NCBI GenBank assembly: GCA_016719925.1
Contig: JADJYC010000004.1
Coordinates: 56,697 to 120,696, forward strand
Direction of reading: 5' to 3'
Origin: Crocinitomicaceae bacterium
GTDB taxonomy: Bacteria; Bacteroidota; Bacteroidia; Flavobacteriales_D; Crocinitomicaceae
Length of the DNA: 64,000 nt
How positions within the stretch are numbered: the first letter of the stretch is position 1; each line of letters starts with the position of its first letter. This document shows positions 4,279 to 64,000 of the stretch, piece after piece. Position numbers and translations under genes: made by a program. The notes beneath the pieces were generated by a model. That model ran no database searches and was not told the origin of the DNA. It was given only the letters and a program-made list of their open reading frames with translations.

Positions 4279-4379
4279 ACCACGGAGACACGGAGAGCAC
4301 AGAGTTTCACAGAGAAATTATTAGCACAAAACAAAATCTAAATCTCCGTGTTACTCCATGCTCTCCGTGTCTCCGTGGT
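4279..4379. repeat. MITE-like palindromic element, copy A
   Basis: Left arm ACCACGGAGACACGGAGAG... and right arm ...TCTCCGTGTCTCCGTGGT are ~35-bp imperfect inverted repeats around an AT-rich core. Related copies lie at 5052-5140, 39843-39948 and 39991-40098. Confidence 0.7.
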
Positions 4380-5148: not shown

Positions 5149-5511
5149 TTAATTTCTTGGATCAATCACTTCAGGGTTCACCAGCACAGGAACACAACCC
5201 GGCTTATGATAAATACAGATGATCAATGGATCACCCAATTTCAGATTCAGTTCATCCAGCATAATTTCAAACGTGGAACCTTTGGTAATCCGGTTGGAAA
5301 TTTCACCGTTCACTTCTGGCGCACGCGTAATGCAAACGGTACTGTCAGCATTAGAAGGATTATAGACAATCAGATTTCTCAATTCATAGTTGCCATAGAA
5401 TTTTGTGCATACATCTTCTGTCTGATCTTGTACAGTGTTTTCACTTTTCCAAAAATGAAATGAAGACAGCATCAAAAATGCGCAAACTACTATTACCGGA
5501 ATTCTTGCCAT
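5149..5511 (-). CDS. Hypothetical secreted protein (120 aa)
   Basis: N-terminal hydrophobic signal MARIPVIVVCAFLMLSSFHF. No recognisable domain. Confidence 0.35.
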   Translation of the reverse strand: MARIPVIVVCAFLMLSSFHFWKSENTVQDQTEDVCTKFYGNYELRNLIVYNPSNADSTVCITRAPEVNGEISNRITKGSTFEIMLDELNLKLGDPLIICIYHKPGCVPVLVNPEVIDPRN

Positions 5512-6979: not shown

Positions 6980-8359
6980 AAAATACGTCTACTACGACTA
7001 TACCATAAGTTTATGTCCGGAGTGTTTAAAACGCATTGACGCTAAAATTGTATTTGAAAACAACAACGTTTACATGTTGAAGAGATGTCCGGAACATGGG
7101 AACTCCAAAGTTCTGATAGCTGATGACATTGAATACTACAAAAGCATCAGAAACTATAACAAAGCTTCCGAAACACCTTTTCGATTCAATACCAAGACAA
7201 ATTATGGATGTCCCTATGACTGTGGTCTTTGCCCTGACCACGAGCAACATTCATGTCTAAGTATAATTGAGATAACTGATCGCTGCAACCTGACCTGTCC
7301 AACTTGTTATGCAAACTCATCACCATCCTTTGGAAGACATAGAACTTTCGAAGAAGTAAAATCAATGTTAGACACGATCGTAGAAAATGAAAAAGAACCT
7401 GACGTTGTACAAATCAGTGGTGGTGAACCAACATTACACCCACAATTTTTGAAATACTTGATTATGCTAAAACCTTGCCGGTCAAACACCTGATGGTGAA
7501 TACAAACGGAATTGAAATCGCAAAAGACTTTGAATTTGCTAAACGGCTGAAAAATTATTCTCCCGACTTTGAAATTTATCTTCAATTCGATTCTTTCAAG
7601 GAAGAAAATCTGGTTTCACTCAGGGGAGCAAATCTAAAAAAAATAAGGGAAAAGGCAATCGAACATCTTAATCAACTAAATCTTTCTACAACTCTTGTAG
7701 TCACTTTACAAAAAGGTTTAAATGACAGTGAAATTGGAGAAATAGTTGATTATGCACTTAAACAAAAATGTGTTAGAGGCGTAACTTTTCAACCAATACA
7801 AGTTGCCGGGAGAACTGAAAATTTTAATCACGAAAATGAAAGGATTACACTCACCGAAGTCAGAAGAAAAATTCTGGAGCAAACCAACATATTTAATCAG
7901 GACGATTTAATTCCGGTACCATGTAATCCGGATTCACTGGTCATGGGATACGTATTAAAATTAGACGGAAAAAATATACCACTTACCAGATATATCAATC
8001 CGTCTGATCTGCTAGATAACAGCAAAAATACAATAGTCTACGAACAAGACGAAACATTGCATCAAAAGATGTTTGAAATTTTCAGCACCGGAACATCAAC
8101 CGATAAAGCTTCTTCAAAATTGCATAGTCTTCTTTGTTGTCTTCCTTCTGTTGAGGCGCCAAATCTTAGTTATGATAATTTGTTCCGTATTATCATCATG
8201 CAATTCATCGATGCCTACAATTTTGATGTAAGAGCAATTAAGAAATCCTGTGTTCACATTGTAAATAAGGACAATAAAATAATCCCCTTTGAAACAATGA
8301 ACATCTTTTACCGTGATGACAAAAAAGAATATTTAGAAAAACTGATAACAAAACATTAA
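6969..8359 (+). CDS. Radical SAM protein with an N-terminal Cys-rich (zinc-ribbon-like) domain, broken by a frameshift at the T5 run 7446-7450
   Basis: CPECLKRIDAKIV...CPEHG...YGCPYDCGLCPDHEQHSC precedes the radical-SAM cluster ITDRCNLTCPTCYA. The GGEPTLHPQF segment in frame 0 continues as EILDYAKTLPVKHLMVNTNGIEIAK in frame +2. A T6 at this site would give a continuous ~460-aa protein. Confidence 0.7.
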
Positions 8360-10190: not shown

Positions 10191-11939
10191 TCACCACTTC
10201 ACAAAATTCACATTTTCCACGTTTGAATTATTCAGTGAACAGATGCGGTAATTTCCTGATGGTAATCTGGACACATCTATTTTGCCTGCATTATGAACCG
10301 TTCCGGTGATAACAATTTCACCAACTGCATTCAGAATTTTATAATCAAATAATCCGTTGTATGTAATGTTAAGATAAATCTGATCAATGCTCATTTCCGC
10401 TTTTAAACCGCCGCTTTGTGTAATTCCGGTATTGGAACCAACAGTAAAACTTTGTTTTGAACTGCATCCGATTGCATCCACAATTAAAACCTCATACGTA
10501 CCGGATGTAATATTATTCAGATCTTCTGTTCTTCCCATTTCCATTCCGTCTTTGGTCCAGTAATAACTGTATGGATAAGTTCCGCCGGCGGGTGTCAGAT
10601 TAATAGAACCAGATTGATTGTATGTTGATTCCTTTACATCTGCAGTTGCAGAAACTTTATTTACCACAACAAAAACAGATGCTTCATTGGAACATTGATT
10701 CTGTGAACCGGCATCATATGAACGCACGGTATAACTATTTACACCAACCGGAGGTGAAAACGGAACACCGTTCAGAACTCCTTTATCCCATGTATAATTT
10801 TCTGCACCTTGTCCATAAAGAATGGTTGATTCTCCTTCACAGATAATTCCGTTTGTTGTAGTTGCTTTCAAATTTCTGGACAAAACATTCAGTTCAACAC
10901 TGTATGTACATTCCCTGTTATCAGAACTTGTTACAGTGTAAGTTGTTCTTCCAACAGGCGGCGTAAAAGGAATGTTATTAGTCACACCATGATCCCAGCT
11001 CAGCGTTGAACGATAATTGGAAACAGCACTGAGTGTAAAAGTTTCTCCCTCACACAATGTTGTATTTCCGCTCAGTTTAACAATTGGATTTGTGCAGATA
11101 ATATCCGGAGAAAAATTTCCGCCGCCGGTTCTGATAATTACTTTTCCGTTTCCGTCATTTACTCCCTGTTCATGTTTTACCTGCGATGCTTTTTTAAAGG
11201 CAAAACTGCTTCCGCCTCCACCACCTGACCAGCAACCACCGCCGCCTCCGTAATATCCGCCACCACCACCGGTTCCGCATGTTCCGGCAGGGCCGCTTCC
11301 GCCAACACCTAATGTTCCGTCACCTGCTTTTTCATACCCTGACCATTTTCCTCCTACTCCTCCATTTTCCTGTGTTGCTCCTCTTCCTCTTGATTCATCA
11401 GCCTGAAGATGATTTGAAAATCCGTCTTGTCCAACAACATCACCACCATGTCCGCCATCATCACCACCGTCAGCATAATTATACGCTGCTCCGCCACCGC
11501 CACCGGCTACAAGAATTCTTCTTTCAAGTTCAACTCCGTCAATCCGGATATCCGTTGCTCCACCGCCTCCTCCACCGCTGTAAATGCCAGATGTATTTCC
11601 CTGATCCGCCTCCGTTAAAACCAGATGTTCCGCCAACACCGCTCGAACCATCACCTCCTTTTCCGCCAACAAAAATATAGAGTGTCTGACCCGGGTGAAC
11701 AGGAATTGTTGCCTGCACTCTTCCGCCTTTTCCTGGTGTGTACTCTTCATACTTTACACCGCTGTAATCATTCCAACCGCCACTGGCACCATATAAATCA
11801 ACCTGCAAAGAATACACACCATTAGGAACAACATAACGCTGATAATCTCCGGTGTATTCAAAGGTTTTGTTTTGGGCAAAAACCGGAATTAAAAGTGAAT
11901 AAAGATTCAGAATCAAAGTCAAAGAAAGATTTTTTTCAT
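10191..11939 (-). CDS. Glycine-rich secreted protein with tandem Ig-like modules and a T9SS C-terminal sorting domain, broken by two frameshifts
   Basis: N-terminal piece (ORF 11539..12066) contains signal-peptide-like LTLILNLYSLLIPVFAQ then ...FVGGKGGDGSSGVGGTSGFNGGGSG. The long ORF continues GGGGGGATDIRIDG...GGGGYYGGGGG, then three ~80-aa Cys-containing modules and a T9SS CTD-like end. A T7 run at 11930-11936 (A7 on the coding strand) and a TTT at ~11597 break the frame. Confidence 0.55.
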
Positions 11940-30403: not shown

Positions 30404-31489
30404 TTATTCTTTAATCATTACATCCAGATAAATGGGCAAATGATCTGCAAAGCCGCCGTGATAATTAAACCCAACATAGGTACGGTTTGTGGTTTTTCCA
30501 ATACCGTCAGACTCCGGTTCCAGTAAATAATCAGCGTCAAAAATCTGAACAAGATTCATTGGTGTAATCAGATTTCCGGTTTGAAAATACATGTTTGGTG
30601 AAGCAATAAACTGATCCAGAATTCCCCATTCATGCTGATAACTGTGTGTGCCTTTTATGTTTTCATATTGCCACATCAGATTAATAAGATCTCCTTTTTT
30701 AAACTGAGCAGAATCTTTCACCGCTTTTAATATTTCATGCATGCTGATATCATCGGGATGATCATTAAAATCTCCCATAGCCAGAATATATGCATCAGGA
30801 TTCAGTGTCATCAGTGAATCAAATTTTTCCTTCAGTGTTTTTGCAGCAAACTGTCTTTTATGTTCTGTTTGCATTTGACCGCCGTATCTGGAGGGCCAGT
30901 GATTGACGAATAAATGCAAGGTGTCTTTGCCAACCAATCCTTTCATGTATAAAATATCACGTGTTGGAGAATGATCAACCGGAAAAATCAATTCATACGA
31001 ATAGAAATTCAAAAAAGAAAAATGTTCAGGTCTGTATAAAAATGCTACATCAATTCCCCTTGCATCTTTTGATTCCTGATGCACAATTTCATAACCAAAT
31101 TCTTTGAGCGGCGAATTATAAACAAGATCTTTCAGACACTGAATATTTTCAATTTCACACAAACCAATCACGGCCGGTGGTTCCCACTGACCTATTGCCA
31201 GAGCGGTTTTCCCGATTTTTGCAAGTTTATCATTGTAGCGCTGATAAGTCCAGTATCGTGTTCCTTCTTCAGTAAACTCATCATCATTTTTAATTGAATC
31301 ATTTGTGGGATGAAAAAGATTTTCCACGTTGTAAAACATGATGCGAATTCCCTTTTTTTCTTCCTGCGGATTTTGTGCGTTTGTGTTAGAGCCAAAGAAA
31401 GATAGAAAAGAAAAAAGGACTATGGGCAAAGGACAGAGGACAAAGCGAAAAGGAAAAAGGACAAAGGGATTTCTTTTGTTTGATTTCAT
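30404..31489 (-). CDS. Endonuclease/exonuclease/phosphatase (EEP) family protein
   Basis: ...IRIMFYNVENLF...GLCEIEN... are EEP motifs. The N-terminal ~35 aa (RNPFVLFPFRFVLCPLPIVLFSF) is encoded by the heptamer repeat array at 31423-31475. Confidence 0.65.
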   Translation of the reverse strand: MKSNKRNPFVLFPFRFVLCPLPIVLFSFLSFFGSNTNAQNPQEEKKGIRIMFYNVENLFHPTNDSIKNDDEFTEEGTRYWTYQRYNDKLAKIGKTALAIGQWEPPAVIGLCEIENIQCLKDLVYNSPLKEFGYEIVHQESKDARGIDVAFLYRPEHFSFLNFYSYELIFPVDHSPTRDILYMKGLVGKDTLHLFVNHWPSRYGGQMQTEHKRQFAAKTLKEKFDSLMTLNPDAYILAMGDFNDHPDDISMHEILKAVKDSAQFKKGDLINLMWQYENIKGTHSYQHEWGILDQFIASPNMYFQTGNLITPMNLVQIFDADYLLEPESDGIGKTTNRTYVGFNYHGGFADHLPIYLDVMIKE

Positions 31490-31540
31490 CGTGGAATCGT
31501 CATAATACTTTTTAACCCTTTGTCCTTTGTCCTCAAATTA
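31423..31540. repeat. Heptamer-array inverted pair (GGCAAAGGACAGAGGACAAAG ... CCCTTTGTCCTTTGTCC)
   Basis: The forward array at 31423-31475 and the reverse-complement array at 31513-31540 flank a 40-bp AT-rich spacer. This is the same family as the arrays at 56.0-62.3 kb. Confidence 0.7.
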
Positions 31541-33339: not shown

Positions 33340-33810
33340 TTCAATTCACTTCGACTTCGACTACGCTCAGTCTCCGTGGACGGCTTCTTGACTTTGACTT
33401 CGAGAACCTCAGTCTCCGTGGATGGTTCTGAAAAATAAAATTCGAGGAAAATTCGTACTTCTAACTTCGTACCTCATACTTCGAATTCGGCTCACTTCGA
33501 CAATGCTCAGTACGAGTCGCTCAGTCTCCGTGAACGGATTCTTAACTTCGACTTCGGCTACGCTCAGTCTCCGTGGATGGTTCTGAAAAATAAAATTCGA
33601 GGAAAAATTTGTACTTCTAACTTAGTACCTCGTACTTGATTTCGGCTCACTTCGACAATGCTCAGTGCTAGTCGCTCAGTCTCCTTGAACGGTCTTAACT
33701 TGAGAACCTCAGTCTCCGTGGATAGCTTGACTTGACTTGACTTGCCACGCTCAGTCTCCGTGGATGGTTCTGAAAAATAAATTGAGGAAAATTGTCCTTA
33801 CCTCGTACTT
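33340..33810. repeat. Higher-order tandem repeat block carrying seven copies of the 15-mer CTCAGTCTCCGTGRA
   Basis: 15-mer copies at ~33366, 33405, 33519, 33557, 33673, 33706 and 33745. Spacing alternates ~39 and ~115 bp, and the long spacers are themselves near-identical (...TGGTTCTGAAAAATAAAATTCGAGGAAAATTCGTACTTC...). The TCTCCGTGG 9-mer equals the right-arm terminus of the MITE-like elements. Confidence 0.75.
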
Positions 33811-55010: not shown

Positions 55011-56059
55011 TTACTTCAAATTATCAATAACCTTTTTCACCATCTCTTCAAACACCTGAGCAGACAACGTATTTTCCTGCAAAACAGCTGGCCGCCCAAC
55101 ATCACCTGCCTCGCGAACGCTTTGTATCAAAGGAACCTGAGCAAGTAAAGGTACATTCATCGATTCAGCCAAATTCTTTGCACCGTCTTTTCCAAAAATG
55201 AAGTACTTATTGTTTGGTAACTCTTCCGGCGTAAACCAGGCCATGTTTTCTACAATTCCTAAAACAGGTACTTTCAACGAATCCATACGGAACATATTGA
55301 TTCCTTTTCGTGCATCTGCCAAAGCAACTTCTTGCGGCGTACTGACAATAACAACTCCTGTTAACGGAACATTTTGCACCAATGTCAAATGCACATCACC
55401 AGTTCCGGGAGGTAAATCCACAATCATAAAATCGAGATCACCCCAATCCGCATCTTTGAACATTTGATTTAATGCTTTGGTTGCCATAGGGCCTCGCCAT
55501 ACAACCGCTTGTTCAGGATCAGCAAAAAATCCAATGGAAAGAATTTTTACTCCGTATGATTCGATTGGTTTGATCAAAGTTTTTCCATCTTTTCTACACC
55601 AACCGGTCTTTGTCCAACCAAATCAAACATGGTTGGCATGGATGGTCCGTAAATATCCGCATCTACCAATCCAACTTTATAACCAAGTTTAGCCAGACCT
55701 GCGGCCAGATTTGCAGTGATGGTAGATTTTCCAACACCACCTTTTCCGGATGCAACGGCAATAATGTGTTTTACATTGGAAAGAATTGCACGCACTTCAG
55801 GTTCTTTATCTTTTGGAAGCGGTACCAATGAAATTTCTGCTTCAATGTCTTTTCCGAACGCACGTTCAAGCTGAAACTGCAATGCTTCTTCCATCCGCTT
55901 TTTTGCATGCATGGCAGGATTGTACACCTTGACACTGAATGAAATTTTATTACCGTCAATTTTTATATCCGAAACGAGATCAAGTGTGATGATGTCTTTT
56001 TTCAGATCAGGCTCGATGACTTTTCTGAGCGCTTCGATTAGGTTTTCTTGTGTGATCAT
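55011..56059 (-). CDS. apbC: Mrp/NBP35 family Fe-S cluster carrier ATPase (ApbC), frameshifted at the T4 run 55590-55593
   Basis: N-terminal DUF59-like segment, P-loop [19 protein letters not shown], ...VGVEK in one frame, then [22 protein letters not shown]...DLPPGTGD in the other. Confidence 0.75.
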
Positions 56060-56063
56060 TGTT

Positions 56064-56250
56064 TAGGGCTAAGGGCAAAGGACTAAGGACAAAGGGATTC
56101 GTTTTGTTAGCTTAATGCTTGCCAATTATTTTTTAGTTGTTTTTTTGGAGAACTAAGGGCAGGGGGCTAAGGACTAAGGGGAACTTTTAATTTTAAAAAA
56201 CTTTTCCATTGACCTTTGCCCCCTGTCCTTAGCCCTTTGACCTATTTAGA
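56064..56250. repeat. Heptamer-repeat element: forward arrays (56064-56098, 56150-56188) and inverted array (56212-56245)
   Basis: GGGCTAAGGGCAAAGGACTAAGGACAAAGGG...AACTAAGGGCAGGGGGCTAAGGACTAAGGGG...CCTTTGCCCCCTGTCCTTAGCCCTTT. The first ~85 bp are homologous to 57018-57102. Confidence 0.7.
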
Positions 56251-57012
56251 TTTAAACTTATTAATAGCATTCACTGTAAATTCTGAAAGTACCAACTCAC
56301 CACTCATTCCCGCGCGCACTTTTAAAAGACTGTCCCAGTTCTCTGTTCCTTCCCAGAATATTTTTTTGAGTTTAGACATAGCTTCCGGATTTGACTCCGC
56401 TAATTTATTTGCCAACACATCTATTGCTTTATCCATTTCTTCAACTGTATCAAAAAGTTGTGTATAAAGTCCCTTTTCTCTTGCCCATTCTGCAGAATGA
56501 AATTCAGTTGCGTTGATGGTCATTTGTGACATGGCAGACAAACCAACTTTTCTTTGCACTGCTGGTCCAACTACAAACGGTCCGATGCCTACTGCCAATT
56601 CAGATAATTTTACTTCAGCACCTTTAGTTGCAAAACAATAATCTACTGATGATGCAAGTCCTACTCCTCCACCTACTGCTTTTCCCTGAACTCTTCCAAT
56701 AATTAATTTCGGAGATTTTCTGCAGGCATTAATCACGCTTGCAAATCCTGAAAAGAAAATTTTTCCGGTCTTCAGATCTTTAATTGAAATCAACTCATCA
56801 AAACTGGCTCCGGCACAAAATGCTTTATCACCTGCTGATTTTAATACAATCACTTTCACTTTACTCATTGCGCTGACATCGGTAATTGTCTTTGCCAGCT
56901 GCGCCAGAATTTTTCCCGGCAGTGAGTTACTTAAAGGATGACCAAACTCAATGGTTGCGATTCCTTTTTCGTTTACTTCTGATTTTACGTGACCTTGGTT
57001 GAGTGCGCTCAT
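56242..57012 (-). CDS. Enoyl-CoA hydratase/isomerase family protein (crotonase fold)
   Basis: ...VIVLKSAGDKAFCAGASFDEL... carries the oxyanion-hole motif. 256 aa. Confidence 0.8.
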   Translation of the reverse strand: MSALNQGHVKSEVNEKGIATIEFGHPLSNSLPGKILAQLAKTITDVSAMSKVKVIVLKSAGDKAFCAGASFDELISIKDLKTGKIFFSGFASVINACRKSPKLIIGRVQGKAVGGGVGLASSVDYCFATKGAEVKLSELAVGIGPFVVGPAVQRKVGLSAMSQMTINATEFHSAEWAREKGLYTQLFDTVEEMDKAIDVLANKLAESNPEAMSKLKKIFWEGTENWDSLLKVRAGMSGELVLSEFTVNAINKFKSK

Positions 57013-57017
57013 ATTTT

Positions 57018-57102
57018 TTAAGGGCTAAGGGCAGAGGGCTAAGGACAAAGGGATTGACTTTGATGGCTTAACACTTGCCGAATATTTCTTTAATTGTTTT
57101 TT
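57018..57102. repeat. Heptamer-repeat element (homolog of 56064-56148)
   Basis: GGGCTAAGGGCAGAGGGCTAAGGACAAAGGGATTGACTTTGATGGCTTAACACTTGCCGAATATTTCTTTAATTGTTTTTTAG. Confidence 0.7.
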
Positions 57103-57503
57103 AGTTCAAGTTTTGAAATCATTGACTTTATCATTTTCTCAACTTGTAAAATTTGATTTTTTAGACTTGTTATATCATTCTCATTAACATAATTTAGTCT
57201 TACACAAATTTCCAGTTGAGTATTTAGCTCACATATAGATCCATAAGAAATTCTTAGAAATTGAATGTAACTTCCAAGATATTTTCTACCCCAACCTTCT
57301 GCTATATTTGAAGGAACAGAAACTGCTGCCCGACGGATTTGATTTGTGATACCAAACTTTTCATCTGAAGGGAAATCCTTAGAAACTTCATAAACATGAA
57401 CAACCAAATCCATCGCCTTCTGCCAAACAATTAAATCACGATACGAATTTATTTTTCCGTATTCTACTGTTCCCTCTTCAAATATCCAATTCTCTAATTC
57501 CAT
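57090..57503 (-). CDS. Four-helix-bundle protein (TIGR02436-like, 23S rRNA intervening-sequence protein family)
   Basis: ...SYRDLIVWQKAMDLVVHVYEVSKDFPSDEKFGITNQIRRAAVSVPSNIAEGWGR... is the family signature. It is flanked by heptamer arrays on both sides. Confidence 0.7.
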   Translation of the reverse strand: MELENWIFEEGTVEYGKINSYRDLIVWQKAMDLVVHVYEVSKDFPSDEKFGITNQIRRAAVSVPSNIAEGWGRKYLGSYIQFLRISYGSICELNTQLEICVRLNYVNENDITSLKNQILQVEKMIKSMISKLELKNN

Positions 57504-57524
57504 TTCCGTATTATAAATTAATTA

Positions 57525-57570
57525 CAACCCCTTAGTCCTCTGTCCTTAGCCCTTTGCCCTAACTCTGATT
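57525..57570. repeat. Heptamer array (reverse orientation)
   Basis: CCCCTTAGTCCTCTGTCCTTAGCCCTTTGCCCTAA. Confidence 0.65.
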
Positions 57571-59607
57571 TAGTTTTTTTACCATAGTTAAAATTGTTGC
57601 AATAGCAACCGTCTCCCCAGTCTCATCATACACATCTACTAAAAACTTTACGATGCCTTTTGCAATGTCTGCTTCATTTCTTTTTTCCTGATCTACTTTT
57701 TCTTTTACTGTAAATCTCACGCCAATTGTTGCTCCGGGATAAACAGGTTTTGTAAAGCGCGCTTCATCTATTCCATAATTCAAAAGTACCGGCCCTTTTT
57801 TAGGATCAACAAATAAACCTGCTGCTTTTGAAAGAATAAAATAACCGTGCGCAACTCGTCTTTCAAAAATAGTTCCGTCCAGTGAAGTGGCATCCATGTG
57901 TGCGTAAAAATTATCTCCGCTTACATTTGCAAAATTGACTATGTCTGCATCACTTACGGTGTGTTTGTGAGTGAAAACGGTTTCACCAATTTCCAATTCT
58001 TCAAAATGTTTTCTGAAGACATGTGGAACTGCTTCCGGCAGATCTGCGCCTACCTGAAACTGTTCTGTGATTTTTGTAATTGTTTGCGGATGTCCTTGTA
58101 TGGCGGTGCGCTGTAAATAATGCATCACGCCTCTTTTTCCTCCCATCTCTTCTCCCCCACCAGCACGGCCAGGACCACCATGCGTAAGCATTGGCATAGG
58201 CGAACCGTGTCCTGTACTTTCATCTGCACAACGTCTGTTCAATACATGAATTCTGCCATGTGATGTAGCTGCTCCCAAAACATATTCTTTTGCAATTTCA
58301 TCATCCGCTGTAATGATTGAAGACACCAAAGATCCTTTACCCATTTTGGCAATTTCAATTGCATCTTCTAAATTTTTATACGGCATGATGGTTGACACCG
58401 GGCCAAAACATTCAATGTTGTGTACACCTTGATTTTTAAACGGATCATCATTCCTGAAAACAATCGTTGGAAAAAATGCACCTTTATTTTTATCTGCGCT
58501 CAGCACATCAAAATTATCCATGTCACCAATCACAATTTTCTGCTCTTTCATCAACAACTCAACATTGTGACGAACGCGTTCAACTTGTAATTTTGTAGCA
58601 AGTGATCCCATTCTTACATTGGCATCTGCCGGATCTCCGATTGTGTTTTTTGCCAGACGTGATGCAAGAGCTTTTTGCACATCATCGATTAAGTTTTCAG
58701 GAACAACAATTCTTCTGACGGAAGTACATTTTTGTCCTGCCTTTACGGTAATTTCTCTCTGAACTTCTTTAATGAAAATATCAAATTCCGGTGTGCCCGG
58801 CACAGCGTCTTTACCAAGAATTGCAGCATTTAATGAATCTGCTTCCAGGTTAAATGAAACAGAATTATCTACTATGTTGGGTAAACTTTTTAATTTTTTT
58901 CCGGTTGATGCGGATCCTGTAAATGTTACAACATCATCCTGAGAAACGTGATCTAAAATTCCTCTTCCCAAACCGCAAACTAACTGAAGAGATCCTTCAG
59001 GAATAATTCCGGAAGCCACTATGTCTCTCACCATTTCTTCAGTCAGAAAACAAGTAAATTCAGATGGTTTAACAATTGCCGGTACGCCTGCAAAAAAGTT
59101 CACCGCAATTTTTTCAAGCATTCCCCAAATTGGAAAATTAAATGCGTTGATGTGTATAGCAACTCCTTGTTTCGGTACCATAATGTGGTGACCGATAAAA
59201 GACCCCCCTTTGGAAAGAGGAATAGCAGTACCATCTACATAATAAGGCAAATCCGGAAACTGTCTTCTTAATGAAGCATTGGCAAATAAATTGCCGCAAC
59301 CTCCTTCAATATCAATCCATGAATCTAATCTTGTTGCACCTGTCCATGCACTCACCTCATAATACTTCTTTTTATTTTTCATTAAGAAGAGAGCGAGTTC
59401 TTTCAGCATCAAACCGCGCTGCTGAAACGTCATTTTACGCAATGCTTTTCCTCCGGTTGATTTTGCGTAATTCATCATTGCGGCGTAATCCAATCCGGCT
59501 GAAGAGCAGGTTCCGATTTTTTCACCGGTAATAGCGTTGAATAATTCGGTTTCTATTCCGTCACCGCTGATCCATTTTCCAAGTGCATAATTTTGGTAGA
59601 CTTTCAT
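57559..59607 (-). CDS. paaZ: PaaZ-like bifunctional protein: N-terminal aldehyde dehydrogenase domain fused to a C-terminal MaoC-like (R)-hydratase domain
   Basis: ALDH-like N-terminus ...[30 protein letters not shown].... The C-terminus ...[22 protein letters not shown]...[13 protein letters not shown]... is a MaoC hot-dog fold. 682 aa. Confidence 0.7.
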
Positions 59608-59635
59608 TTGTTGTCAGGTTTGAGGGATAAAGTTA

Positions 59636-59860
59636 TGTTATTTTTTAGGACTAAGGGCTAAGGACTAAGGGCTAAGGGCTATTGACTTCGGACTTAGGGC
59701 TGAATGGTGAGGACTTAGGCAAATGAAAAATTTGTTTTGGATAATGATCCTTCTGAGATATAATTTATTCTCGAAACTCATTCCTTGAGCAAAAAACCTT
59801 GGCTAATTCAACTATAAATCCCTTGTCCTCTGCCCTTAGCCCTTTGTCCTATAATAATCT
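59636..59860. repeat. Heptamer-array inverted pair (forward 59636-59712, reverse 59815-59860)
   Basis: AGGACTAAGGGCTAAGGACTAAGGGCTAAGGGCTATTGACTTCGGACTTAGGGCTGA ... ATCCCTTGTCCTCTGCCCTTAGCCCTTTGTCCTAT. Confidence 0.7.
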
Positions 59861-59925
59861 AATCGGACTATTTTTGTTTTTGATTAAGAAACCCCTTATC
59901 TTTGCCCCAGTTCTTAATTTTATTT

Positions 59926-60032
59926 ACTTATAAAGAAAGGTGGAGGGACCGGCCCTGCGAAACCTTGGCAACCTGTTCCTTTCAGAGAATAAGGTGCCAA
60001 TTCCTTCCTGTTTATTATCGGGATAATATAAG
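59926..60032 (+). ncRNA. SAM-I (S-box) riboswitch in the 5' leader of the metH N-terminal module
   Basis: CTTATAAAGAAAGGTGGAGGGACCGGCCCTGCGAAACCTTGGCAACC...AAGGTGCCAATTCC...GGGATAATATAAG matches the SAM-I consensus (GGUGGAGGGAC.GGCCC..GAAACC..GGCAACC...AAGGUGC.AAUUCC) with a closing P1 CTTATA/TATAAG. Confidence 0.75.
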
Positions 60033-60070
60033 CGTTAATCAGTTTTCCGGTCTCGCCTCTGTAGTTGTTT

Positions 60071-61099
60071 ATGAACGATATCAGAGAAATATTAAAACAT
60101 CGCATTTTGGTGCTGGACGGCGCTATGGGCACTATGATTCAGCGGTATAAACTGGAAGAAGCAGATTTCAGAAAAGGCTGGTTTGAAAATCATCCAAAAC
60201 CGCTGAAAGGAAACAATGATTTATTGGTTTTGACCAGACCGGATATCATCAAAGAAATTCATCGTGAATATTTAGAAGCCGGTGCTGACATTCTGGAAAC
60301 AAACACATTCAGCGGAACTACTATTGCGCAAGCTGATTATGGCCTGGAAAAATATGCATACGATATTAATTTTCACGGTGCAAAAATTGCCAAAGAAGTT
60401 TGTCAAGAATTCACAAAAAAAAATCCGGACAAATTAAGATTTGTTGCCGGATCAATCGGACCGACCAACGTGACACTTTCTATTTCTCCAAATGTCAATG
60501 ATCCGGGATTCAGAAGTACAACTTTTGATAAAATGGTTGTGGCTTATGAAGAACAGGTGAAAGGATTGATCGATGGAGGAGCTGATTTGCTTTTAATAGA
60601 AACAATTTTTGATACACTCAATGCAAAGGCAGCACTTTTTGCAACTCAAAATGTACAGGAAAAACTGGGAACAAATCTTCCCATCATGATTTCAGGAACA
60701 ATAACGGATGCCAGCGGACGAACGCTATCTGGTCAAACTGCTGAAGCATTTTTAGTTTCAGTTCAGCATGCAGATTTACTTTCTGTTGGATTGAATTGTG
60801 CTTTAGGCGCAAGTACGCTGAGACCATATCTTCAGGTATTGAAAAAAAATGCACCGTTCGCTATTTCAGCGCATCCAAATGCCGGACTTCCAAATGAAAT
60901 GGGTCAATATGATGAGACTCCGGAAATGATGGCCGCACAAATTAAAACATTCCTGGATGAAGGTTTGGTAAATATTGTTGGAGGATGCTGCGGAACAACA
61001 CCGGCGCATATTAAGGCGATTGCGGAGCTGGTTGAAAAGAGGGCAAAGGGCAGAGGACAAAGGGCAGAGGACAAAGGAAATGTAGTAACGGGTTCTTGA
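60071..61099 (+). CDS. metH: Homocysteine S-methyltransferase module of cobalamin-dependent methionine synthase (MetH N-terminal domain as a separate ORF)
   Basis: [24 protein letters not shown]...[21 protein letters not shown] are Hcy-binding domain motifs. The last ~20 codons ([18 protein letters not shown]) are encoded by a heptamer repeat array. Confidence 0.8.
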
Positions 61100-61212
61100 A
61101 AAAAATAAATACTAATTTGAAAATTCAACTGGAAAAATAATGCAACGTCTTGAAAATAAAAATAACTCATACGGACAAAACCCTCTGTCCTTAGCCCTTA
61201 GACCTCTGTCCT
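61037..61212. repeat. Heptamer-array inverted pair (forward 61037-61082, reverse 61176-61212)
   Basis: AGGGCAAAGGGCAGAGGACAAAGGGCAGAGGACAAAGG ... CCCTCTGTCCTTAGCCCTTAGACCTCTGTCC. The forward arm overlaps the 3' end of the metH N-terminal ORF. Confidence 0.7.
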
Positions 61213-61217
61213 AAAAA

Positions 61218-61959
61218 ATGGCATCACATTTCGGTAAAATATTAGGCGGTGGTTTAGGCTGGGCTTTCGGTGGTCCGCTTGGTGCTTTAATTGGCGTAGC
61301 TATTGGCGGAATTCTTGACGTTGGAAATTCTGCGGGACAAACACGAAGAACTATTATTGGCAATCAACCTCATCAGACACAAGCAGGTGATTTTGGTGCA
61401 GCATTGATTGCGCTTTCTGCGGTGGTCATGAAAGCAGATGGAAAAATTCTGAAATCAGAAATTCAGTTTGTACGTGATTTTTTTACCAGACAATTTGGTG
61501 TTCCCCGCACCAATGAATACATCAAATTACTTCAGGAAATTTTAAAACAGGATATTCCGGTAAGAGAAATTTGTTTTCAGATTCGTCACAACATGGAGCA
61601 TCCGCTGCGACTTGAATTGCTTCGTTATCTTTTGAAGTTTCAAAAGCCGATGGTCATGTTGACAAATCAGAAATTCATATTCTGCATCAACTTTCGGACT
61701 ACTTGGGAATATCAGAAAAGATTTTCTCTCGCTGAAAAACATGTATTATAAAGATGTCGATTCAGCCTATAAAATTTTAGAAATAAACACAAAGGCAACT
61801 GACGAAGAAGTAAAAAAAGCATACCGAAAAATGGCAGTCAAATATCACCCTGATAAATTAAGTTCATTAGGGCCGGAATTTGAAAAAAACGGAAAAGAAA
61901 AATTTCAGAAAGTACAGGAGGCGTATGATAAGATTAAGAAAGAACGTGGATTTAAATGA
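61218..61959 (+). CDS. DjlA-like co-chaperone: Gly-rich TM segment plus TerB-like domain plus C-terminal J-domain (HPD), with two frameshifts (T4 61630-61633, A4 61716-61719)
   Basis: MASHFGKILGGGLGWAFGGPLGALIGVAIGGIL. TerB-like ...ALIALSAVVMKADGKILKSEIQFVRDFF.... Corrected reading ...RYLFEVSKADGHVDKSEIHILHQLSDYLGISEKDFLSLKNMYYKD.... J-domain DSAYKILEINTKATDEEVKKAYRKMAVKYHPDK. Confidence 0.55.
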
Positions 61960-62288
61960 GGACAGAGGGCAGAGGGCAAAAGGCAAAGGGCAGAGGGCAG
62001 AGGCAAAGGGCAGAGGAAAAAGCCAAAAGGTTTTAAAAAAAATGATCGAACTGAAATACTAAAATAAATAGATTGAAAATACAACAACCTTTAATATTAT
62101 AATTAACCAAAACATTAGTTAAATACTGATATGGCCAAAACAAAAACCCTTTATCCTTGGTCCTCTGTCCCTAGCCCTCAAAAAATTGAAAGAATATTTA
62201 AGAAACAGAACTAGTAAAAAAATTGACGAGTGCCGGGGAATCAAACCAAATCCCTTTGTCCTTAGCCCTCTGTCCTTAGCCCTATAAA
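61957..62288. repeat. Heptamer arrays (forward 61957-62022; reverse 62148-62182 and 62240-62288)
   Basis: GAGGACAGAGGGCAGAGGGCAAAAGGCAAAGGGCAGAGGGCAGAGGCAAAGGGCAGAGG ... CCCTTTATCCTTGGTCCTCTGTCCCTAGCCCTC ... CCCTTTGTCCTTAGCCCTCTGTCCTTAGCCCTAT immediately precedes the ATG at 62290. Confidence 0.7.
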
Positions 62289-62289
62289 A

Positions 62290-64000
62290 ATGAACATACA
62301 TCCTGACTACCCCGGAAAATACCAATACAAATGGAACCAATTACCCAACATGAAGTTGAGCGGACTGGAACCTTTGGAACTAACACCTGAATCCAATTTT
62401 GTAAATGTTGGTGAGCGGACCAATGTTGCTGGCTCAGCAAAATTTTTGAAACACATCAAAGAAGGAGAGTTTGAAGCTGCATTGCAAATTGCACGTGATC
62501 AGGTTGAAGGCGGTGCGCAAATCATTGACGTGAACATGGATGATGGTTTGATAGAAGGAAAAGAAGCGATGGTGAAATTTTTAAACCTCATTGCATCAGA
62601 ACCGGACATTGCGCGTGTACCCATCATGATAGATTCATCCAAATGGGAAATTATTGAAGAAGGATTGAAATGTGTTCAGGGAAAATGCGTGGTAAATTCA
62701 ATCTCATTAAAAGAAGGAGAAGAAAATTCATTCATCAGGCAAAAAAATAAAACAATACGGCGCTGCGGTAATAGTGATGGCGTTTGATGAAAACGGTCAG
62801 GCTGATACCTATGAAAAAAGAATTCAGATGTGTGAACGTTCATACCGGATTCTGGTTGACAAAGTAAAATTTCCGCCACAGGATATCATTTTTGATCCAA
62901 ACGTTTTTCCGGTTGCAACAGGTATGGAAGAACATAAATTGAACGCACTTGATTTTTTCAGAGCAACAAGATGGATCAGGGAAAATTTACCCGGTGCACA
63001 TGTGAGCGGAGGAATTTCAAACGTCTCCTTTTCATTCAGGGGAAATAATCCCGTGCGTGAAGCTATGCACTCTGCGTTTTTATATCACGCTATTGAAAAC
63101 GGAATGGATATGGGAATTGTAAACCCAACCATGCTGGAGGTATATGATGAGATTCCAAAAGAATTGCTGGAGCGTGTTGAAGACGTTTTATTAAACACAA
63201 GAGAAGATGCAACCGACAGGTTACTGACATTTGCAGAATCATTTGTTGGCGGCGCAAAAGAAAAGAAAGCAGAGCTTGAATGGAGAAAAGAAAATTTACA
63301 GGACCGTATCACCTATTCTTTAGTTAAGGGAATTACTGAGTTCATTGATCAGGATGTGGAAGAAGCACGATTGTCTGTCAAACAACCTATCGAAGTAATT
63401 GAAGGACATCTGATGAACGGAATGAATGTAGTGGGAGATTTATTCGGATCGGGGGAAAAATGTTTTTACCACAGGTTGTAAAATCTGCCCGCGTTATGAA
63501 AAAGGCAGTTGCTTATTTATTACCATACATTGAAGCATCCAAAACTGAAACAAAAGCCAAAGGAAAAGTGTTGATGGCCACCGTAAAAGGGGATGTGCAC
63601 GACATCGGAAAAAATATTGTAGGCGTTGTTTTAGGCTGCAATAATTATGAGATTATTGATTTGGGCGTGATGGTTCCGGCTGAAAAAATTCTGGAAGTTG
63701 CCAAAAAAGAAAAAGTTGATGTGATTGGTTTGAGTGGTTTAATTACACCTTCATTGGATGAAATGGTACACGTTGCAAAAGAAATGGAACGTGAGGGATT
63801 TACCATTCCTCTTTTGATTGGAGGAGCCACAACTTCTAAAGTTCACACCGCTGTAAAAATAGAGCAGAATTACAAAAAGGGACAAACCGTTTACGTACTG
63901 GATGCCTCACGGTCAGTAACTGTTGTTTCAAGTTTGTTATCTGATGACAAAGAAAAATTCATCAGAGAAGTTCAGGAAGATTTTTCACGCGTGAGAGAAA
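62290..64000 (+). CDS. metH: Cobalamin-dependent methionine synthase, pterin-binding plus B12-binding modules (3' end outside the window), with two frameshifts (A7 62741-62747, A5 63456-63460)
   Basis: ...[30 protein letters not shown]...IIDVNMD... is the pterin domain. ...[15 protein letters not shown]... follows in the next frame. ...[12 protein letters not shown], then [26 protein letters not shown]...[11 protein letters not shown] (B12 DxHxxG) in a third frame. Confidence 0.8.

Follow-up and report, generated by a model that had tools for sequence, protein, structure and literature searches.

Inverted heptamer arrays between genes of a Crocinitomicaceae genome as the probable arms of intervening sequence-type hairpin elements

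INTRODUCTION

The intervening sequence (IVS) in helix 45 of the Coxiella burnetii 23S rRNA carries tandem heptamers, (GACAGAT)3, upstream of the codon at which its S23p open reading frame (ORF) starts; their copy number varies among strains, and cleavage by RNase III falls at the first repeat, midway along a stem of 28 bp (PMC4990558). Heptameric units also make up long simple sequence repeats (SSRs), including Xanthomonas GGGAATC, Nostoc/Anabaena GGGGA(C/T)T, the cyanobacterial STRR repeats, Beggiatoaceae TAACTGA, and Geobacter GGGACCG, which have been read as G-quadruplex (G4) motifs or as regulator binding sites (PMC4692102, PMC4679880, PMC2700814). Here, we analyze a 64,000-nucleotide stretch (the window) of a Crocinitomicaceae (Flavobacteriales) metagenome-assembled genome (MAG), in which inverted arrays of heptamers lie between ordinary genes and, at one site, flank a gene for a four-helix-bundle (4HB) protein of family PF05635 (23S_rRNA_IVP). 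We conclude that the arrays are probably the paired arms of hairpin elements of the IVS type, a family present here as one ORF-bearing copy and six ORF-less copies.

The window joins three puzzles. STRR repeats have been known since 1990, and the PF05635/TIGR02436 family is very large, with millions of members. We know of no established origin or function for the excess of heptamer repeats, no role for the S23p ORF of 23S rRNA IVSs, and no function for the PF05635 family outside the Avd proteins of diversity-generating retroelements (DGRs). Our search, which covered subscription journals thinly, found no literature linking PF05635 or S23p genes to tandem-repeat arms in general; this is no proof of novelty, as most subscription-journal papers lay outside it. 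The nearest papers describe the Coxiella IVS, with its three heptamers in a single IVS (PMC4990558), and, in a supplement and without comment, a GGGAATC array over the start codon of Xanthomonas campestris XCC0516 (PF05635, PDB 2GSC), GGGAATC being the dispersed heptamer of that genome, with 186 sites (PMC4692102). The term "four helix" is absent from all three papers on heptameric SSRs, as are "S23" and "intervening" from those in which they were searched for (PMC4692102, PMC4679880, PMC2700814).

RESULTS

Heptamer arrays form inverted pairs that fill intergenic regions

Taken in phase, the arrays repeat the unit AGGRCWR, which appears as YWGYCCT on the opposite strand. The window contains 14 arrays, seven purine-rich (F, + strand) and seven pyrimidine-rich (R), at 31416-31533 and 56065-62283; no further arrays occur in the remainder of the 64 kb. 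A pattern of three units with at most one mismatch matched 35 times, compared to no matches in any of 100 dinucleotide shuffles. An F array is always followed by an R array, which gives seven pairs of purine-rich arm, spacer, and pyrimidine-rich arm. The spacers are AT-rich and ~37 to 132 nt long, except in the pair around the 4HB ORF (~480 nt), and six of the seven elements are found in the 6.2 kb that surround the 4HB gene. On both strands, the predicted fold of every pair exceeds that of shuffled sequences in stability (z of -2.4 to -7.4). An earlier reading of this DNA, made from the sequence alone, had proposed an interspersed family of inverted heptamer arrays with the potential to form long stem-loops, and the shuffles, the pairing, and the predicted folds all bear this out. 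It had given the arrays 4 to 9 tandem heptamers; the true range is 3 to 9. Comparable arrays are present in independently assembled relatives (loci L208 and L222/L223). These exclude an assembly artifact, an eventuality that the sequence-only reading had raised against itself, and together with the shuffles they rule out chance or artifact as the origin of the arrays.

All arrays lie in intergenic regions or at their edges. The arrays had been said to bracket genes; instead, they fill the spaces between them, the purine-rich arm beginning at or a few bases from the upstream stop codon and the pyrimidine-rich arm stopping 5 to 8 nt short of the next ATG (djlA, metH-C, crotonase, and mrp). The elements, numbered E0 to E5, comprise the following features.

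E0, 31416..31467, + strand: purine-rich arm, inside the annotated 5' end of an EEP-family ORF
E0, 31515..31533, - strand: pyrimidine-rich arm, with the EEP start codon on one side and an SPFH/band-7-like gene's stop codon on the other; fold z of -3.4
E1, 56065..56096, + strand: outer purine-rich arm, at a distance of 5 nt from where mrp/apbC starts (56059)
E1, 56097..56148, - strand: relic of the 3' end of a 4HB cassette, ~70% identical to 57053-57102
E1, 56156..56180, + strand: inner purine-rich arm; hairpin minimum free energy of -41.8 kcal/mol, z of -4.5
E1, 56218..56243, - strand: pyrimidine-rich arm, overlapping the crotonase stop codon (56242-56244)
E2, 57021..57052, + strand: purine-rich arm, 8 nt from the crotonase start codon (57012)
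E2, 57053..57102, - strand: non-repeat flank, comprising the 3' untranslated region (UTR) and last codons of the 4HB ORF; homologous to 56097-56148
E2, 57528..57560, - strand: pyrimidine-rich arm, overlapping the PaaZ stop codon (57559-57561)
E3, 59647..59701, + strand: purine-rich arm, at a distance of 40 nt from where paaZ starts (59607); fold z of -7.4
E3, 59825..59850, - strand: pyrimidine-rich arm, upstream of the SAM riboswitch and metH-N
E4, 61040..61077, + strand: purine-rich arm, translated as the C-terminal tail of metH-N
E4, 61180..61212, - strand: pyrimidine-rich arm, ending 5 nt before the djlA start codon (61218); fold z of -4.0
E5, 61959..62027, + strand: purine-rich arm of ~9 units, beginning at the djlA stop codon
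E5, 62160..62178, - strand: inner pyrimidine-rich arm
E5, 62251..62283, - strand: outer pyrimidine-rich arm, ending 6 nt before the metH-C start codon (62290)

Six elements are ORF-less and one, E2, carries an ORF. Two flanks of ~85 bp (56064-56148 and 57018-57102) had been noticed as homologous beyond the heptamers, and they are indeed ~70% identical over a 50-nt non-repeat part. The relic in E1 reads QLKNNW, its stop codon lost, where the cassette ORF ends in ELKNN-stop. Apart from this E1/E2 match, the spacers of the ORF-less elements resemble neither one another nor the 4HB gene, as all-against-all blastn matched the arrays only. Searching six-frame translations of the spacers for 4HB relics with a profile hidden Markov model built from 120 homologues gave no significant match (best E value of 0.2). 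Inspection by eye showed neither target-site duplications nor direct repeats beside the elements.

Some arrays lie within ORFs. The metH-N ORF has 342 amino acids, compared to ~329 in relatives, because ~13 extra codons read into the E4 array, as had been recognized earlier; MetH-N proteins of relatives match only 94 to 95% of the ORF. Genes called across arrays can thus gain artificial tails. The hydrophobic, signal peptide-like N terminus of the EEP ORF is coded by the pyrimidine strand of the E0 array. The repeat may have been recruited here as a genuine signal peptide; alternatively, the ORF may be overextended, with its true start at Met51, in which case the E0 array would be 5' UTR. ORF 61880..62062 is probably a spurious overlapping frame.

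The E2 arms enclose a PF05635 gene

The best-matched arms in the window, 57020-57044 and 57530-57554, are 92% complementary over 25 nt, with variable positions in register, and enclose ORF 57090-57503. Its product of 137 amino acids matches PF05635 (E value of 1.4e-40; 138 bits against a cutoff of 33.8) and TIGR02436 (3.2e-38; 130 bits against a cutoff of 24) and has a counterpart with 100% identity in a Crocinitomicaceae MAG. Along the coding strand, the order is (AGGRCWR)n - ORF - (YWGYCCT)n, array 57528..57560 on the minus strand being the purine-rich arm 5' of the ORF; the E2 purine-rich arm of the forward strand reads AGGGCTA AGGGCAG AGGGCTA AGGACAA AGGG. The nearest solved structures, 2GSC (E value of 5.5e-24) and 2RLD, each have five identical chains in their PDB entries; for the 2GSC protein, a homopentameric toroid has been reported (PMC4990558). 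The motif PSNIAEG(Y/W)GR is very strongly conserved, which suggests a specific site. The 4HB gene is the only true cassette in the window; the sequence-only reading had seen it as an rRNA IVS-type gene and had missed its key role for the arrays. A phage or DGR origin of the cassette was considered and rejected, as tblastn found no homologue among 50,697 phage records.

Repeat arms are a general feature of the sampled PF05635 genes

We compared the best 80 metagenomic loci coding for relatives of the 4HB protein (43 to 57% identity), 65 of which have both flanks, by aligning 200 nt upstream to the reverse complement of 200 nt downstream and taking a score of at least 30 as positive. Inverted flanking arms were found in 62% of the 65 genes, compared to 8% when the same flanks were aligned directly, 7% with permuted partners, and 2% with flanks displaced by 480 to 700 nt. 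The arms are tandem in 40 of 40 positives, with a period of 7 in 23 and of 8 in 17, and the purine-rich arm is 5' of the ORF in 38 of the 40. The unit varies between cassettes, and the positive loci have at least 20 different ones (e.g., AGGCAGT, AGATGTC, AGGGACT, AGTGACA, AGCGTAT, AGTTTCC, AGGATTCA, and AGGGTTCA). Proteins flanked by the same unit are 69% identical, versus 50% otherwise, and extra arrays near cassettes are ~130-fold more often of the cassette's own unit than of a foreign one, a ratio based on four arrays only.

The same layout is found beyond this sample. An Actinomycetota MAG (L029) carries (AGAGGAC)n - PF05635 ORF - (GTCCTCT)n, a Riemerella anatipestifer plasmid has 8-mer arms of the AAGGTTCA type, and AGGGTGT arms occur in plasmids of Calothrix brevissima and Nostoc punctiforme. 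The N. punctiforme plasmid pNPUN01 has two cassettes 3 kb apart, with units AGGGTGT and GAAGTCG, and within 50 kb of this plasmid all six TRF arrays of at least four heptamer units lie within ~200 nt of a 4HB ORF or, in one case, inside it. Between these cassettes (L224, 26797-27533) are the excision-factor genes xisH and xisI and a gene for a tyrosine recombinase, with Tn7-like transposition genes nearby; heptamer repeats and XisH/XisI have been reported to share a similar taxonomic distribution (MacGregor 2015). Plasmids alpha (L214) and gamma (L213) of Nostoc PCC 7120 encode an identical 4HB protein (WP_010994075.1) and retain a downstream CTGCCCT arm of the AGGGCAG class. In gamma, an ISL3 transposase gene lies directly upstream of the 4HB gene, where the other arm would be expected, and in alpha a transposase gene lies ~550 nt from the cassette. 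Judging from these sequences, the cassette appears to have been duplicated between replicons together with neighboring mobile DNA.

A 23S rRNA IVS shares the unit class of the window

On plasmid AZO_p2 of Azospirillum lipoferum 4B (L218, 13765-15330), a 23S rRNA gene (926 bits against Rfam LSU) is interrupted by a PF05635 ORF, next to a stretch that we take to be the helix-45 region. The stem of this IVS is built of AGGACGG ATGACAG AGGACGG AGGACAG, paired with its complement; the units are of the AGGRCWR class, and AGGACAG is common to the IVS and the window. The PLSDB gene table, which includes no RNA genes, shows no feature at L218 13765-15330. The 23S rRNA flanks of this IVS matched none of the other loci compared, including the 80 metagenomic cassette loci; thus, most PF05635 cassettes appear to lie outside rRNA.

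Arrays of the AGGRCWR class are widespread and mostly stand alone

Arrays of this unit class occur in at least 120 loci of other genomes. Among the matches listed, to which the remaining figures of this paragraph also refer, GC content ranges from 0.32 to 0.74, and the titles name more than 10 bacterial groups (Planctomycetes, Acidobacteria, Cyanobacteria, Chloroflexi, several Proteobacteria classes, Bacteroidales, Verrucomicrobia, Actinobacteria, and others). The arrays had been thought lineage specific, which this distribution contradicts, as does the generality of the layout around PF05635 cassettes. Polarity is nearly uniform, with 31 purine-then-pyrimidine pairs versus 1 reverse pair and a median spacer of 80 nt. 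A 4HB ORF was present in the fetched stretch (up to 8 kb) of only 1 of the 120 loci. The association is therefore one-way: most sampled PF05635 genes are armed, whereas most arrays stand alone.

Close relatives hold different units at the same sites

At the site between paaZ and the crotonase gene, the relatives compare with the window as follows.

L208 (PaaZ 97% identical in amino acids, region 81.5% in nucleotides): orthologous cassette
L210 (PaaZ 91% identical in amino acids): cassette with AGGGGTT arms
L211 (PaaZ 89% identical in amino acids): cassette and paired AGG-type arrays both absent, with palindromes of another kind in their place
L201 (4HB protein 64% identical in amino acids, region 72% in nucleotides): cassette with decayed arms

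L208 also has ORF-less pairs of the AGGRCWR class upstream of paaZ and after the crotonase gene. The palindromes of L211, at 8040-8140, 5235-5510, and 10340-10630, are not built of tandem units; an example is TGTAGGGGTACGTTGCGACGTACCCCTACA, repeated with slight variation.

The metH region shows the same pattern. L219 and L220, whose MetH-N proteins are 93 to 94% identical to that of the window, have inverted tandem heptamers CAAAATT / ATTTTGA (L219, 1240-1415; L220, 4960-5140 and 5870-6225) at the array sites of the window. L222, ~88% identical in the flanks, has inverted heptamers TAGGAGT/TAGCTCT at the metH sites, and holds two unit families, with no 4HB cassette in the 2 kb covered; its alignment to the window breaks at the borders of E3 and the start of E4. 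As close relatives hold different units at the same sites, turnover of the elements is fast. Between the window and L219 or L220, the sequence has been replaced but the hairpin of tandem heptamers retained, and the elements mark the fastest-changing points of otherwise conserved operons.

A recombination hotspot that shuffles cassettes had also been proposed. In relatives, gene order does break at intergenic regions that bear arrays, which lends this idea slight support. However, metH-N is a separate gene of ~329 codons in every relative examined, so the split of metH is ancestral, and L219 and L220 likewise have djlA between their two metH parts, which rules out shuffling at metH. Since the order metH-N / djlA / metH-C is kept despite different units, the arrays do not delimit shuffled cassettes.

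Neighboring genes and other features of the window

The genes around the elements are the following.

30404..31489, - strand: EEP-family ORF, beside the SPFH/band-7-like gene (stop codon at 31538)
55011-56059, - strand: mrp/apbC, start codon at 56059, as two overlapping ORFs with a break at 55577/55574
56242-56244 (stop codon) to 57012 (start codon), - strand: crotonase gene, neighbor of mrp/apbC
57090-57503, - strand: PF05635 4HB gene, between the crotonase gene and paaZ
57559-57561 (stop codon) to 59607 (start codon), - strand: paaZ
59925-60034: SAM-I riboswitch (RF00162; Rfam, 82 bits), upstream of metH-N
61097-61099 (stop codon), strand opposite to paaZ: metH-N, homocysteine methyltransferase domain
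61218-61959, start codon at 61218: DjlA-like gene, as two overlapping ORFs with a break at 61751/61741
62290-63481, start codon at 62290: metH C-terminal gene (metH-C), as two overlapping ORFs with a break at 62787/62774

The riboswitch, placed correctly beside the metH N-terminal module by the sequence-only reading, is also kept upstream of metH-N in L219 to L222 and was the sole match in an Rfam scan of the window, which found no rRNA and no other known RNA family. The mrp/apbC, djlA-like, and metH-C genes, each split in the window, are intact in relatives (mrp/apbC, 352 amino acids in L208; djlA-like and metH-C, 248 and 904 amino acids in L219), which suggests assembly indel errors or recent pseudogenes. 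A second, unrelated intergenic repeat cluster lies at 33340-33790, where the 16-mer GCTCAGTCTCCGTGGA, with 7 copies versus 0 expected, is part of a tandem unit of 155 nt (2.2 copies). The TRF list also contains short repeats of the ACGGAGAC type at 4281, 39844, and 39995.

DISCUSSION

We consider it probable that the arrays are the two arms of IVS-type hairpin elements, one bearing a PF05635 ORF and six without. Direct observations are the build of the elements, the repeat arms that PF05635 genes have in general, the fast replacement of the elements between relatives, and the presence of an AGGRCWR-class unit in the stem of a 23S rRNA IVS. The mechanism we propose is conditional on the analogy to rRNA. 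The elements would be cotranscribed with neighboring genes, their arms would pair into RNA stems of 20 to 30 bp, and RNase III would cut these stems as it cuts those of IVSs in rRNA. Such cuts would segment the transcripts of operons, giving the downstream cistron a short A-rich leader, and would free the 4HB mRNA from the full element. Copies with an ORF would have given rise to those without by interior loss, which is directly supported for E1 only.

Several points weigh against this interpretation. Our sample consisted of the best-scoring relatives of one subfamily, so that the 62% may not hold family-wide. Most arrays stand alone, and the arrays could thus be the older entity. The spacers are unrelated, and only for E1 is it evident that an element descended from a full cassette or transposed as a whole. 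The 4HB cassette is orthologous and vertically inherited (L208 and L201), with no recent mobility seen. Finally, the part assigned to RNase III in the window elements would be carried over from rRNA IVSs.

The rival that survives best, which we nevertheless regard as unlikely, resembles the relationship of REP sequences to RAYT proteins: the pentameric 4HB protein would recognize, maintain, copy, or spread arrays of its own unit, perhaps with one unit per subunit, and the ORF-less pairs would be nonautonomous partners of the ORF-bearing copy. The clustering of one ORF-bearing and six ORF-less AGGRCWR copies suits this idea, as do the individual unit of each cassette (even of two cassettes 3 kb apart on one plasmid), the higher identity of proteins with the same unit (69% versus 50%), the ~130-fold enrichment of own-unit arrays (from those four arrays), the pentameric homologues (five chains; 2GSC homopentamer) set against arrays of typically 4 to 5 units, and the specific site suggested by PSNIAEG(Y/W)GR. 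However, the L029 and window proteins are 34% identical with a common unit class, whereas proteins with other units reach 43 to 57%; L222 has two unit families and no cassette in the 2 kb covered; and simple co-inheritance would explain the similarity of proteins that share a unit. We also know of no nucleic acid-binding or catalytic activity in non-DGR PF05635 proteins, which counts against such a role. A broader version is tentative and, in our judgment, doubtful: the PF05635 pentamer would be a sequence-specific partner of 7- to 8-nt units, one subunit per unit and each protein matched to its own arms, in a widespread selfish or regulatory system that seeds ORF-less arrays. If true, this pairing would explain the excess of bacterial heptameric repeats (STRR, Xanthomonas GGGAATC, and others) and give a function to the PF05635 family.

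It is a good deal less likely that the arrays are host-selected SSRs that arose in place by replication slippage and were kept as RNA or DNA hairpins at gene boundaries, with 4HB genes merely lodging or surviving in the loops. The absence of a 4HB gene near most arrays and the unique spacers would fit, as would the other units or nontandem palindromes (L211) that relatives hold at the same sites, suggesting that the site is conserved and not the sequence. The over-representation of heptamer SSRs in bacteria, which is documented (PMC4692102), also counts in favor. Several findings count against this reading, however. Hairpin function offers no obvious reason for the 31:1 polarity, the AGGRCWR class recurs across phyla over a GC range of 0.32 to 0.74, cassette arms match in register with variable positions included, all six N. 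punctiforme TRF arrays (at least four heptamer units, in 50 kb) are at 4HB genes, E1 carries non-repeat cassette sequence, and rRNA IVSs bring their own arms into a helix that has none in other bacteria.

Bidirectional intrinsic terminators or insulators, also suggested by the sequence-only reading, seem very improbable, despite the GC-rich stems directly after stop codons (E1, E2, E4, and E5) and the significant stability of all pairs. On both strands, T-runs precede and A-runs follow the hairpins, the reverse of a terminator, and no predicted terminator-like site overlaps any array; on these grounds, we reject intrinsic terminators. In addition, the loops are 37 to 132 nt long, the genes on either side of E3 are divergent, a start codon falls within E0, and elements lie inside the apparent operons paaZ-crotonase and metH-N-djlA-metH-C, whose order is conserved. 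Regulatory repeats that form G4 structures, as proposed for Xanthomonas GGGAATC, where G4 formation has been investigated (PMC4692102), and for Nostoc GGGGAYT, are the least credible rival, as AGGGCTA units do have G3N4 spacing, but many window units are AGGAC with GG only, many arm units elsewhere lack G-runs (AGATGTC, AGTGACA, AGCGTAT, AGTTTCC, and CAAAATT), so that G4 formation is unlikely to be general, and a complementary partner 40 to 130 nt from each G-rich arm favors a duplex. A Shine-Dalgarno-like function was likewise rejected as a general property, as many arm units are neither G-rich nor Shine-Dalgarno-like.

Considered as IVS-type hairpins, the arrays connect most of the sampled PF05635 genes, a 23S rRNA IVS, and ORF-less forms between ordinary genes through one repeat-armed layout. 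The known systems share this layout to different degrees. The Avd proteins of DGRs have a homologous pentameric four-helix-bundle fold, to which the weak matches of the 4HB protein to Pfam bAvd and NCBIfam Avd (far below cutoffs) correspond; unlike in DGRs, no reverse transcriptase and no template or variable repeat is present in the elements and flanking genes. Miniature inverted-repeat transposable elements are likewise small, ORF-less, and bounded by terminal inverted repeats, beside an ORF-bearing relative. The window elements differ from them in having unrelated interiors (except E1/E2), no target-site duplication by eye, and no transposase in the ORF-bearing copy.

REP/BIME-RAYT systems (REPINs) resemble the window elements in being dispersed intergenic palindromes, commonly in inverted pairs, in genome-specific families with one repeat-flanked protein gene and many ORF-less copies. 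Their repeat is a single imperfect palindrome of ~35 nt, in contrast to arms of tandem 7-mers 37 to 480 nt apart, and their protein is a Y1 (IS200/IS605-like) transposase, whereas the flanked gene of the window encodes a four-helix bundle of 137 amino acids; we know of no transposition chemistry in PF05635 elements. The heptameric long SSRs, like the window arrays, are tandem, have ~3 to 14 units, lie mostly in intergenic regions near gene ends, and vary in length among strains, with unit sequences that differ from AGGRCWR. Repeats of TAACTGA are almost all direct, whereas the window arrays are inverted; Xanthomonas GGGAATC forms 70 to 75 "convergent" plus/minus pairs, and convergent heptamer pairs have been described for Nostoc too (PMC4692102), an arrangement seen in every F/R pair of the window.

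The closest system is that of rRNA IVSs with an S23p ORF (Coxiella helix 45, Leptospira, and Azospirillum). Unlike these, the window elements lie between protein-coding genes and not in helix 9, 25, or 45 of 23S rRNA, six of seven are without an ORF, and excision by RNase III has been demonstrated for rRNA IVSs only. The features in common concern the element itself: a PF05635 ORF, shared with E2; inverted arms around it that pair into a stem longer than 20 bp, as in E2; arms built of tandem heptamers, with the purine-rich arm 5' of the ORF, again as in E2; and a repeat copy number that varies by strain, a further likeness to the elements of the window.

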